Assembly: GCA_035508795.1 (NCBI GenBank)
Contig: DATJMJ010000006.1
Coordinates: 793 to 64,792 of the forward strand
Direction of reading: 5' to 3'
Length of the DNA: 64,000 nucleotides
Source of the DNA: Acidimicrobiales bacterium
Lineage (GTDB): Bacteria > Actinomycetota > Acidimicrobiia > Acidimicrobiales > Palsa-688
Shown here: positions 19,634 through 24,410 of the stretch, in pieces
Layout of the letters: every line of letters starts with the position of its first letter
Position numbering within the stretch: the first letter of the stretch is position 1
Made by a program: the position numbers and the translations under genes
Notes under the pieces: model-generated
What the model saw: only the letters and a program-made list of their open reading frames with translations
Told to the model about the DNA's origin: nothing
Database searches by the model: none

Positions 19634-20337
19634 GACTGTGTCCAGGTTTGGGTGGTCGCAAACGGGCCACCACACGCAGTGCCGGTGGCTGCCGCGTTTC
19701 CCGTCGAGTTGAGGGCCGTGAAGGTAACTGAGGAACTCGTCTTTTCATAGGCCTCCCCGGTCCCCGAGGCCGCGGATAGTGTCACTGACAGTTGGACCTC
19801 CTCGAAGTTGGTGTTCGAGACGATCGCGAAAGGATCCGCTGTGCCGGTAAGGCCGTTAACCAACATCTTGAACCCGGGCGCTGAGGTTGCGCCCTCCGAC
19901 CAGGTTTGTTGCAGGAGCTCGCCCAAGCCGTCGTTGTACTGGAGCTCCCAACAGTTAGGCGTTGCCGCGCCGTCAAAGGTAGACGTGAACAGGACGTCCC
20001 ACGTGTCCCCGCTTGTGCCCGCATAGGGCGCCCAGATCTGCGAGGCGTAGCGGACCTCCGAGTCCAGGTCCAAGAATGCGATGTTGAGGTTGTCCGAGGA
20101 GTCGCGGATTGCTTCGGTTTGCAGAGCCGGGTTGACCAAGTGGACCATCGTTGTCGTGATCAGGGCCATGAGTATCGTCATGATAAACATGGCGACGCTC
20201 AGCTCGACGAGCGTGAACCCTTTTTGGTCGTCGATGCGTTGGGGCCGCGCGGCAAACCCTCGGGGACCCACAAGCCTGCGCGGGCAAGGTCTCGCTTGCC
20301 TCCTGAACGGATGGGGTAGGAGCCTGCGCGTCATCAC
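19630..20337 (-). CDS. Minor pilin (PilW/GspJ-like) with prepilin N-terminal methylation motif
   Basis: DDQKG|FTLVELSVAMFIMTILMALITTTM class III signal. The leader is unusually long if ATG 20337 is used, so an internal GTG start is possible. 4-nt overlap with the upstream gene. Confidence 0.75.
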   Translation of the reverse strand: MMTRRLLPHPFRRQARPCPRRLVGPRGFAARPQRIDDQKGFTLVELSVAMFIMTILMALITTTMVHLVNPALQTEAIRDSSDNLNIAFLDLDSEVRYASQIWAPYAGTSGDTWDVLFTSTFDGAATPNCWELQYNDGLGELLQQTWSEGATSAPGFKMLVNGLTGTADPFAIVSNTNFEEVQLSVTLSAASGTGEAYEKTSSSVTFTALNSTGNAAATGTACGGPFATTQTWTQS

Positions 20338-23300: not shown

Positions 23301-24410
23301 CGACGTCGACGGCCCGTAGTAACCGAAGCTCACCGAAGCCGTCTCTGAATAGCCGCTCGACAGCGTGCCGGTTATCGAGGCAGCTGTAATTGCCGTCCCG
23401 ACCGTCGGTGGGGTCGCCGGGCCCGCAACAACCAAGGCGGGAGAGGCCTTTACCACGCTCAGGAGGAAGTCCTGGGTACCGGTCCCATCTGCGTTGGTGG
23501 CCTGGATGCACACCGTGTAGGTGCCGACGGTGCCACTTGCCGGGGTGCCGGAGAGCAGGCCGTAACTGGTGAGGGTCACCCCGCTCGGGAGGCTCGAAGC
23601 CGAGCAGGCACCGTTGCCATATGAAGCGTTCTCGTAAGTGGGGGGCGGGAAACCGCTCGTCGTTACCTGGAAGGTGTCCGCAGTCCCGACGATGAAAGTC
23701 GTGTCGGAGTCGCTCGTTATGTAGGGGATTATCGGGTTGACGTCGAAGCCCGGGTCGCTCGTCCCGCTGATGAGCGTCGACGTAATGTAGTAACAGCCCG
23801 CACTGCCGCAGCCCCCCCGGGGAGCGTTCCAGGTGACGTCAACGATCACTCGGTACATCTGGTAATTGCCGGCGCTCGAGGTGCACGTGTTGGAGGTCGA
23901 CCCGCCCGAGTTGTACGAAGGTTCGGTACAAGTGCCGACGTAGTAATAGACCTGGAAGGTCTGGCCCCCCACCGACTCCGTCACCGGAGAGGTCGGCAGC
24001 ACCGCAGTCGTGTCGCCCGTGTCGCTGTCGTAGGCCAGAGTTGTGTCGGCCAGGATCCCCGAGGTAGTGCTGAGCCCGGCCGCCGGGCTGGCCCACTCCG
24101 CGCTGACTGCAGCGCTCAGGCGCCCCTTGAGCAGGCCCGAGCCCCCGTTCTTGGTGGCATCGATCGCGCGCGCCTGGTCGAGCGCCGTGTCGGCGAGCAT
24201 CGACGCAACTTCACGGGTGTGCGCGTCCTCCGAGGCGGAGATCGATGTGATGTACGCGTCGGCGACAGGTATGAGCATTATGACGAGCAGGCTGATCGCG
24301 ATGACGACTTCGATCAACGTGAAGCCGCCGTCGGGCCGGTTGGCCGAGCGCTCGCGCAGCTTCTCCACGACGCGCGCGATGCGCCGGCCGGACCGTGAAC
24401 AGTCACCCAC
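20334..24410 (-). CDS. Giant modular minor pilin (PilV-like N-terminus + He_PIG-like Ig domain + 7 tandem Ig-like repeats + C-terminal beta-rich module), 1358 aa
   Basis: RPDGG|FTLIEVVIAISLLVIMLIPV prepilin motif. aa ~230-320: LPSGVTLTSYGLLSGTPASGTVGTYTVCIQATNADGTGT (putative-Ig/He_PIG-like). aa 321-1154: seven ~115-122-aa repeats, each with TCxT...GDYWWYASYxGDxNNN...CGSGMxETVV. aa 1155-1358: unrelated S/T-rich beta module. Confidence 0.8.
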   Translation of the reverse strand: MGDCSRSGRRIARVVEKLRERSANRPDGGFTLIEVVIAISLLVIMLIPVADAYITSISASEDAHTREVASMLADTALDQARAIDATKNGGSGLLKGRLSAAVSAEWASPAAGLSTTSGILADTTLAYDSDTGDTTAVLPTSPVTESVGGQTFQVYYYVGTCTEPSYNSGGSTSNTCTSSAGNYQMYRVIVDVTWNAPRGGCGSAGCYYITSTLISGTSDPGFDVNPIIPYITSDSDTTFIVGTADTFQVTTSGFPPPTYENASYGNGACSASSLPSGVTLTSYGLLSGTPASGTVGTYTVCIQATNADGTGTQDFLLSVVKASPALVVAGPATPPTVGTAITAASITGTLSSGYSETASVSFGYYGPSTSAPTSCQTSTGNGWSTLGNATASGNSAVSPSSGFTPSSAGDYWLYASYPGDANNYPAQAACGAGMTEVVVGMKSPTLTATGPSTGTTGTAVTTTSISSALASGYSPTGSITWTVFGPSTTAPTTCTTGGNAGGTANVSSGNATYHPSSPAVFTPAAPGDYWWYASYNGDTNNNPATSTCGTGMSETVVTGKYYPTLTVLGPSSGTLAVASAPAAATLSGASPTASGAITFGVYGPSGTPPATCQTTTSGLWQAEGSATPSGNGSYPSSAFTPTAAGDYWWYASFAGDSNDMAAQTICDSGLMSETVVAAASPTVTAAGPSTGTTGTLIGASNITSTLSSGYSPGGSLTITVFGPQSSAPTVCTGTGQSSWSVSVTGNTSYHPGTGFTPPGPGDYWWYTSYGGDANNNTAVSTCGSGMSETVVTGKASPSLTVTGPSSGTVHTAIGNTSIIGALSGGYNPNGTITFTVFGPQSTPPTTCTSGGTTWSGNTASASGDGTYNPSGGPTPTTAGDYWWYASYGGDTNNNSATTTCGSGMAETVVSLASPTLVVTGPSSGSIGTAIAASSISGALSGGYSPGGNGTLTFSVYGPSASAPTTCQTTTSGSWTAIGSALNVSGDATYHPSTTFTPPTAGDYWWYASYAGDTNNNGANSACGSGMAETVLSLQSPSLTVSGPSTDAPGTAIATTSISAVLSGGYSPGGNGTLTFSVYGPSASAPTTCQITGGSWTEVGTALTPSGDATYHPSTTFTPQTAGDYWWYAYYAGDANNNPAAAPTTCGSGMSETVVPVTVTHSYSGTGTTSASASVTATSGQTLLILGYAEGTHSSDTVTITGTSGSATAIPGTSSSTHSGSKYYLEWAYYATAATGTSTVTFGVSSSETYLHLDVLVLSGNSSAYSQANVTSGTSASPNATLTNAPANWDLEVALIGAVANEGGVTTPTPAGSWTQVSNAYASGYEVSTDWSNTNTGTSKTFTLNNGSTSWATIAIDIT
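20949..23450 (-). repeat. Seven in-frame tandem coding repeats (345-366 bp units) inside the giant pilin gene
   Basis: Unit boundaries estimated from the protein: 23450-23091, 23090-22737, 22736-22380, 22379-22035, 22034-21681, 21680-21315, 21314-20949. The last two units share an identical 47-nt stretch (21184-21230 = 21550-21596), exactly 366 bp apart. Confidence 0.8.

Follow-up and report, generated by a model that had tools for sequence, protein, structure and literature searches.

A candidate giant modular minor pilin in the type IV pilus locus of a monoderm related to Acidimicrobiales

Can a single gene of a type IV pilus locus encode a pilin that carries its own long stalk and terminal head? 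The question is raised by a 1,358-amino-acid (aa) open reading frame (ORF) at 20334..24410, on the reverse strand of a 64,000-nucleotide (nt) stretch of an Acidimicrobiales bacterium assembly (GenBank GCA_035508795.1, contig DATJMJ010000006.1, positions 793 to 64,792). This stretch is the whole of the DNA that we analyzed and is referred to here as the window. An earlier note on it had read the ORF as a pilin extended by immunoglobulin (Ig)-like repeats. We consider it probable that the product, here called the giant pilin, is a genuine prepilin and a core I-type (PilV/GspI-like) minor pilin of a type IVa pilus, placed as a head-on-stalk subunit at the fiber tip, in a monoderm related to Acidimicrobiales. 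The host is most likely a monoderm actinobacterium lacking a secretin. A complete type IV pilus locus lies within the window, with the assembly machinery and a prepilin peptidase.

Domain organization of the giant pilin

The gene and the modules that it encodes are as follows.

20334..24410 (-): giant modular minor pilin gene, 1358 aa, a single uninterrupted ORF with a GTG start
24327..24410 (-): leader peptide, aa 1-28, basic, with Gly28 as its last residue
23730..24326 (-): pilin module, aa 29-227 (~200 aa), with F+1, E+5, a hydrophobic alpha1-N and 4 Cys; predicted long helix, then a 4-stranded sheet; weakly PilV/GspI-like
23454..23729 (-): He_PIG Ig-like domain, aa 228-319, 2 Cys (Pfam and Foldseek)
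23094..23459 (-): repeat R1, aa 318-439, Big_3_5-like, 2 Cys (repeat alignment, as for R2 to R7)
22740..23093 (-): repeat R2, aa 440-557
22383..22739 (-): repeat R3, aa 558-676
22038..22382 (-): repeat R4, aa 677-791
21684..22037 (-): repeat R5, aa 792-909
21318..21683 (-): repeat R6, aa 910-1031
20949..21317 (-): repeat R7, aa 1032-1154, nearest to R6
20337..20948 (-): C-terminal module, aa 1155-1358 (204 aa), all-beta, no Cys (profile search, AlphaFold2 [AF2] and Foldseek)

The stop codon occupies 20334-20336. The N-terminus reads MGDCSRSGRRIARVVEKLRERSANRPDGG up to the predicted cleavage site and FTLIEVVIAISLLVIMLIPV after it, and residues 24-48 are RPDGG followed by FTLIEVVIAISLLVIMLIPV. 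This arrangement reads as a class III signal, G/FTLIE (the slash marking the predicted cut), with Gly at -1, Phe at +1, Glu at +5, and a run of ~20 hydrophobic residues. Two curated profiles recognize it above their cut-offs: Pfam N_methyl at aa 27-48 (23.9 bits versus 21.2) and the NCBIfam GFxxxE domain TIGR02532 (17.3 bits versus 16.3). In an alignment with orthologues, two residues of GFTLIE, I11 (its Ile) and E12 (its Glu5), were invariant in all seven sequences, as was the hydrophobic helix; the G, F, T, and L agreed in six of them, the seventh (P0002) being truncated at its N-terminus. The MGDC/W start of the leader is likewise kept in the orthologues P0010 and P0022.

Assignment of the pilin module to a particular minor-pilin class is less firm. 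The module resembles PilV (TIGR02523; 27.1 bits, E = 4.9e-6, aa 29-86) and GspI (TIGR01707; 21.9 bits, E = 1.8e-4, aa 29-97) at scores below the equivalog cut-offs of 52.2 and 44.35, respectively, and it shows a weak similarity to ComGE that is also below the NCBIfam cut-off. The I-type (PilV/GspI-like) assignment is thus weakly suggested by this similarity together with gene order. An AF2 model of the pilin and He_PIG modules contains a 55-residue helix (10-64), four strands (121-193), and then an Ig-like sandwich. Its confidence score (predicted local distance difference test [pLDDT]) is only 55, and at this low confidence the modeled helix and four strands have the topology expected of a pilin. 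A Foldseek search with this model returned only Ig-domain matches and was uninformative on the low-confidence pilin module.

The domain that follows is more clearly classified. Scanned alone, aa 231-319 matched He_PIG (PF05345) with E = 6.3e-11 and 43 bits, against a gathering threshold of 24, and Foldseek superposed the domain on an Ig-like domain of 4nzj with a root mean square deviation (rmsd) of 1.5 Å over 92 columns. The He_PIG domain is thus a bona fide Ig-like domain.

The seven repeats are units of 115-123 aa with 27 invariant columns, among them both Cys residues and the G-D-Y-W motif (at aa 409, 527, 645, 761, 879, 1001, and 1122). Identity between units is 47-77% in protein and 53-78% in DNA. 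R6 and R7 are the closest pair (77% aa and 78% nt identity); they share the longest exact DNA word common to two repeats (47 nt) and are the only pair registered as a DNA tandem repeat by Tandem Repeats Finder. Their similarity points to a recent duplication. Against Big_3_5 (PF16640), four of the seven repeats score 10-20.6 bits and three give no match, the gathering threshold being 35.5; PF16640 is present among the precomputed Pfam matches of many homologues with the same repeat. The repeats are therefore best treated as divergent Big_3_5 relatives, and an Ig fold with a disulfide would follow from this family relation and the invariant Cys pair. A profile search for relatives of the repeat in the Protein Data Bank (PDB) found nothing significant.

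Residues 1155-1358 are unrelated to the repeats, contain 35.8% Ser+Thr, and are predicted to be all-beta. Of the 20 Cys residues of the protein, four lie in the pilin module, two in He_PIG, and two in every repeat; the C-terminal module has no Cys. The mature protein, computed from the sequence, has 1330 aa, a mass of 131.7 kDa, and a pI of 4.05; Ser and Thr make up 31.5% of it, and only 13 of its 1330 residues are basic (8 Lys and 5 Arg). This Lys/Arg depletion may reflect protease resistance or charge constraints on passage through the cell wall. The C-terminus reads ...WATIAIDIT, and no LPXTG sorting signal was found anywhere in the protein; sortase anchoring was rejected on this basis. A reading of the gene as the target of a diversity-generating retroelement was also rejected, as a blastn comparison of the gene with the 64-kb window revealed no template copy outside the gene.

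What the earlier note had observed in this protein was borne out throughout, and its interpretation in part. The observations were the 1358-aa length, the genuine class III signal and pilin helix, the He_PIG-like domain, the seven tandem two-Cys repeats (given there as 115-122 aa), and the ~200-aa Ser/Thr-rich beta module at aa 1155-1358, unrelated to the repeats. The pilin module, given there as PilV-like and ~220 aa, is taken here as ~200 aa, with a similarity to PilV below the cut-off, and the repeats, given there as Ig-like, resemble Big_3_5 in four of seven units, all of them under the Pfam threshold.

Two features upstream of the gene were also observed. The giant pilin start is separated from the divergent aroC start by 81 bp (24411-24491), and the GTG has no obvious Shine-Dalgarno sequence upstream.

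Minor-pilin operon, orthologues, and the C-terminal module family

Two further minor pilin genes lie directly downstream of the giant gene.

19630..20337 (-): second minor pilin, 235 aa, GFTLVE with Glu5; weak ComGF and GspH similarity below cut-off
17876..19675 (-): third minor pilin, 599 aa, with a PilX_N-like hydrophobic N-terminus lacking Glu5 (cap-like) and a ricin-B lectin domain

The start of the 235-aa pilin gene overlaps the stop of the giant gene (GTGA). Both downstream minor pilins have counterparts of 52-63% identity in three other loci (L001, L002, and L004); in L002 (12790-15195), the second and third genes were called as one 801-aa product. The proposal that the giant gene is the first of a minor-pilin operon with two downstream minor pilins was supported, and the operon is conserved in other loci. 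A GNAT acetyltransferase ORF (17314-17961, reverse strand) shares positions 17876-17961 with the 3' end of the gene for the third minor pilin, which has the same orientation; the ORF may close the operon, or its start may be mis-set.

We read the architectures of the orthologues with hidden Markov models built from the modules of the giant pilin itself. All orthologues retain the pilin module and the first He_PIG domain (51-66% identity), and complete orthologues span 778 to 1358 aa. The giant pilin of the window has seven repeats and the C-terminal module; P0002, from another sample, has six repeats and the C-terminal module in the same unit order; P0005 has three and P0011 has two, each with the C-terminal module; P0010 has three repeats and a Big_3_5 end; and P0020-22, L004, and L005 have an alternating He_PIG/Big_3_5 array of a different kind. 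The order of modules in the giant pilin (pilin, He_PIG, repeats, C-terminal beta module) is beyond chance because orthologues from other assemblies share it. The picture suggested by these sequences is of a conserved pilin and He_PIG carrier on which stalk length and head are swapped among relatives, which fits an adhesin evolving by module shuffling. The series of orthologues, with two, three, six, or seven repeats or a different array, amounts to a natural experiment on adhesin reach and specificity. P0123 (400 aa), considered as a naturally short orthologue, was rejected: it shares its N-terminus with P0020, of which it is a frameshifted copy, and its end is garbled. The C-termini of P0003, P0004, and P0008 are likewise out of frame, and frameshifts, whether real or due to sequencing, are frequent in these repeat-rich, high-GC genes.

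Pilin-headed proteins with the same C-terminal module also occur outside this set of orthologues. P0140 is a 1488-aa protein with a GDTLVEV head, Ig-like arrays, and the same C-terminal module; its gene (8001-12467, forward strand, of L014) lies in an unrelated type IV pilus locus on a forest-soil contig, flanked by genes of minor-pilin size, for proteins of 497 and 567 aa, and then by PilB, PilC, a pilin, PilT, and PilD. P0142 (1286 aa) has N_methyl above threshold, Ig arrays, and the same C-terminal module. A size record for the giant pilin is not supported, since P0140 is larger.

The C-terminal module matched nothing in Pfam or NCBIfam. Word-indexed searches for homologues of the C-terminal and N-terminal pieces returned two proteins each and missed known relatives, so that an exhaustive profile search was needed; with the C-terminal module, this search yielded 712 cluster representatives at E ≤ 1e-3 and 185 at ≤ 1e-10. 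Among 124 module-bearing proteins inspected, only 0-3 residues follow the module in nearly every case, and 8 of the 124 have pilin-type N-termini. It occurs twice in some of its proteins (P0009, P0035, and P0125), alternating with repeat blocks; its relatives include P0121-P0269. The repeat, too, is present in many large proteins without a pilin head.

The AF2 model of the C-terminal module (pLDDT, 77.6; predicted template modeling score, 0.80) has 14 strands. No PDB relative was found by sequence profile, and the best Foldseek match to the PDB had a template modeling (TM) score of 0.34, with none at E ≤ 1e-3. Searched against predicted viral structures (BFVD), the model gave 50 matches at E ≤ 1e-3, the best with E = 1e-7, a TM score of 0.84, and an rmsd of 2.7 Å over 216 columns. 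Many of these matches (TM scores of 0.6-0.84) are annotated as "minor tail protein" of Mycobacterium or Gordonia phages. P0121, which is 42% identical to the C-terminal module of the giant pilin, matched phrog_553 ("minor tail protein") end to end with E = 1.7e-5. The giant pilin's own module had no PHROG match, and tblastn of three modules of the family against 50,697 phage records gave no match. At the level of the fold, the match is strong. A remote relationship between the C-terminal module and phage tail-tip modules is credible but unproven. The family is sizeable and has neither a Pfam model nor a PDB member; its structure or ligand would shed light on pilus adhesion as well as on the recognition of hosts by phages.

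Tip-subunit model, alternatives, and related systems

In the mechanism that we propose, the N-terminal hydrophobic helix would insert in the membrane, the ~1300-aa C-terminal part would be exported, and the neighboring A24 prepilin peptidase, whose recognition motif is present in the giant pilin, would cut after Gly28. The giant pilin would then join the 235-aa and 599-aa pilins encoded in the same conserved operon in a complex that would prime pilus assembly and remain at the tip. We propose such a tip complex because the operon, with an I-like first gene, a second pilin with Glu5, and a lectin-bearing third lacking Glu5, fits the core minor-pilin scheme. The single He_PIG and the seven Big_3_5-like domains would make up a stalk, each domain probably braced by a disulfide between its conserved Cys pair, with a length of ~30 nm at roughly 4 nm per domain. 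At its end, the stalk would present the 204-aa C-terminal module as a ligand-binding head, its ligand probably being a glycan or cell-surface polymer because the head shares its fold with phage minor tail proteins. The tip complex would thereby bear two binding modules, a ricin-type lectin on the cap and a phage-tail-like head ~30 nm away on eight Ig-like domains. PilB would extend the fiber and the PilT-family ATPase would retract it, both genes being present. If incorporated, the giant pilin would be among the largest pilus subunits known and would test how bulky a cargo can be extruded and retracted by the type IV pilus machine of a wall-bearing monoderm.

Several points weigh against this tip-subunit reading. 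The pilin-module model reached a pLDDT of only 55, and the PilV and GspI scores fall under the curated cut-offs. The repeats match Big_3_5 only below threshold, and their Ig fold is deduced from sequence. The modules of the stalk and head are present on many proteins that lack a pilin head and so are not pilus specific. The link to phages consists of comparisons between predicted structures and one weak profile match, with a null tblastn result. Finally, we infer processing, incorporation into pili, tip location, ligand, and adhesion alike from the genes.

One alternative is that the pilin-type N-terminus serves only as an anchor or export signal and that the giant pilin is a wall-spanning surface adhesin held in the cytoplasmic membrane and never polymerized, its ~30-nm stalk crossing the Gram-positive wall. 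The occurrence of the repeat and C-terminal modules on many nonpilin carriers with other N-terminal signals indicates that this kind of extension works without a pilus, and a 131.7-kDa subunit would be bulky for a fiber. However, Streptococcus sanguinis does incorporate bulky modular pilins (PMC8179133), the giant gene and the two minor pilin genes coupled to it in translation form an operon that is conserved across genera and lies beside the assembly machinery, and Glu5 and the full alpha1-N, which are used in filament packing, are invariant. We therefore regard a membrane-held adhesin as unlikely. It is also conceivable that the giant pilin is a low-abundance subunit scattered along the fiber, like PilV, PilX, and ComP of Neisseria meningitidis, and forms lateral stalks instead of a tip structure. 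Noncore minor pilins are distributed along filaments (PMC10191384), and a position in the fiber body was not excluded by Raynaud et al., given a flexible linker (PMC8179133). Against such a position stand the I-J-K-like gene order with a third gene lacking Glu5, which is typical of a tip or priming complex, and the presence of only three minor pilin genes, which are thus likely to be the core set; we judge a scattered location to be quite improbable.

A more trivial explanation, that misassembly created the long repeat array or that the gene is a decaying pseudogene, draws on the general proneness of repeat arrays to assembly errors and on the visibly frameshifted public relatives mentioned above (P0123, P0003, P0004, and P0008). 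Collapse during assembly is made unlikely by the divergence of the repeats, which are only 53-78% identical in DNA and have no common word longer than 47 nt. Moreover, the frame is open over 4074 nt, the 27 invariant residues recur in every unit, and P0002, from another sample, has six collinear units and the same C-terminal module. On the strength of the diverged repeats, open frame, and collinear orthologues, this explanation was rejected as extremely improbable.

Considering the tip-subunit reading alongside characterized systems, the giant pilin combines a pilin module with domains that are not pilus specific, the combination by which Raynaud et al. (2021) define modular pilins and which we recognize here from the sequence. 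Their survey lists >1,200 modular pilins in 264 architectures (PMC8179133). The earlier note had held that known modular pilins carry one grafted module; this was wrong, as N_methyl-He_PIG, among the commonest architectures, is catalogued with a single module in 14 proteins, with three in 9, and with four in 11, and the most extreme case there is an 860-residue Candidatus Falkowbacteria pilin with 12 IPR013211 motifs (PMC8179133). These database pilins likewise have a pilin head followed by tandem small beta domains. Compared with them, the giant pilin is longer, has a different repeat family that is missed at Pfam thresholds, and ends in a distinct head.

The closest parallel in a monoderm host is S. 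sanguinis, in which PilB (von Willebrand factor A module) and PilC (lectin module) also consist of a pilin module with non-pilus-specific grafts and act as adhesins (PMC8179133). Core minor pilins prime assembly and end at the tip, capped by a subunit lacking Glu5, and in S. sanguinis the H-I-J-K set is replaced by PilA (I-like) and the modular adhesins PilB and PilC (PMC10191384). The giant pilin operon resembles this three-gene set, in which one member is I-like and the others bear adhesive modules. In contrast to the S. sanguinis modular pilins, which have one appended module and a mass of ~50 kDa, the giant pilin has nine (one He_PIG, seven Big_3_5-like, and one head) and a mass of 131.7 kDa, and it is the I-like subunit itself that bears the extension; the system described here is known from its genes. 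The same gene order with a third subunit lacking Glu5 is found in GspI-GspJ-GspK and PilV-PilW-PilX, and a search of the giant pilin operon for a fourth minor pilin, of H type, identified none.

CofB of enterotoxigenic Escherichia coli and TcpB of Vibrio cholerae are also minor pilins of large size, with a pilin domain joined to beta-repeat and beta-sandwich domains; they lie at the tip and initiate assembly (PMC8179133, PMC10191384). However, they are homotrimeric type IVb proteins of diderms, of ~500 aa; no relation between them and the giant pilin, in sequence or fold, was found here. PilY1/PilC of diderm type IVa pili is a ~1000-aa modular tip adhesin that sits on the minor-pilin complex, and species differ in the effector modules that it carries, these being swapped. 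PilY1 does not belong to the pilins and ends in a beta-propeller, whereas the giant pilin joins adhesin and carrier in one polypeptide, and no PilY1-type gene was seen in its operon. Sortase-anchored Gram-positive adhesins such as MSCRAMMs (microbial surface components recognizing adhesive matrix molecules) likewise project a binding head from the cell on a tandem Ig-like stalk. Unlike these, the giant pilin has no LPXTG motif and would be anchored by its pilin helix and probably stabilized by disulfides; the description of its stalk as MSCRAMM-like in the earlier note is accordingly no more than an analogy. The actinobacteriophage minor tail proteins (phrog_553; BFVD models of phages TChen, Zenon, Shauna1, and Hawkeye) share a predicted fold with the C-terminal module. 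They differ from its family in showing no tblastn similarity, the function of the phage domain is itself unproven, and the common fold has no solved structure.

The giant pilin extends the existing concept of modular pilins and is not a new kind of system. Three things seem to be undescribed in the literature searched: this architecture, the variable-length series of orthologues, and the family of the C-terminal module, whose predicted fold is phage-like. The size and the phage-like head are noteworthy to pilus specialists and leave the concept of modular pilins unchanged. A broader and speculative idea, which we hold to be rather unlikely, is that stalked pilins recur as a class of their own in soil monoderms of the Actinomycetota-like kind, with a ~30-nm disulfide-braced Ig rod at the pilus tip. 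The rod would end in a receptor-binding module that shares homology with the host-recognition modules of actinobacteriophage tails and is exchanged with them. Such a pilus would recognize on neighboring bacteria the same envelope glycans as the phages do, for cell-cell capture, aggregation, or acquisition of DNA or prey.

Remaining genes of the pilus locus

The other genes of the window that bear on the pilus are as follows.

2273..3988 (+): PilB-type extension ATPase with an MshEN domain
4152-5372: EAL/HDOD protein, between the PilB and PilT/PilU-family ATPase genes
5480..7027 (+): PilT/PilU-family ATPase (486.6 bits versus a cut-off of 319.1) with an N-terminal MshEN domain, which binds cyclic di-GMP
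7091..8344 (+): PilC platform protein
8547-10925 (-) and 11200-13218 (+): two PMT_2-type (dolichyl-phosphate-mannose-like) glycosyltransferases, between the pilC and major pilin genes
13264-13914 (+) and 14026-14658 (+): two major-type pilin genes
14737-16377 (+): PilM, 546 aa
16374-16973 (+): PilO
27485..28279 (+): prepilin peptidase (A24_N_bact and Peptidase_A24), downstream of aroC-aroK-aroB
28323-31865 (-): conservon-like four-gene set next to the prepilin peptidase gene, encoding a sensor kinase with HATPase_c, Roadblock/LC7, DUF742, and an ATP_bind_1 GTPase

With a prepilin peptidase and a PilT-family ATPase in the same window, the retractable pilus envisaged in the earlier note is plausible. 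An MshEN-type domain is unusual on a retraction ATPase; the match of the PilT/PilU-family protein to MshEN (NF053729) scored 38.2 bits against a cut-off of 38. The presence of this domain on both ATPases suggests cyclic di-GMP control over extension and retraction. The two PMT_2-type glycosyltransferases could O-glycosylate Ser/Thr-rich pilins, including the giant pilin.

The layout of the locus recurs around the orthologue P0020, where aroC-aroK-aroB-pilD is followed by the giant and downstream minor pilins and then by PilM, pilins, PilC, and an ATPase. The aroC-aroK-aroB-pilD arrangement beside the minor-pilin operon is kept in L002 as well, and the conservon-like neighbors are also present in that orthologous locus.

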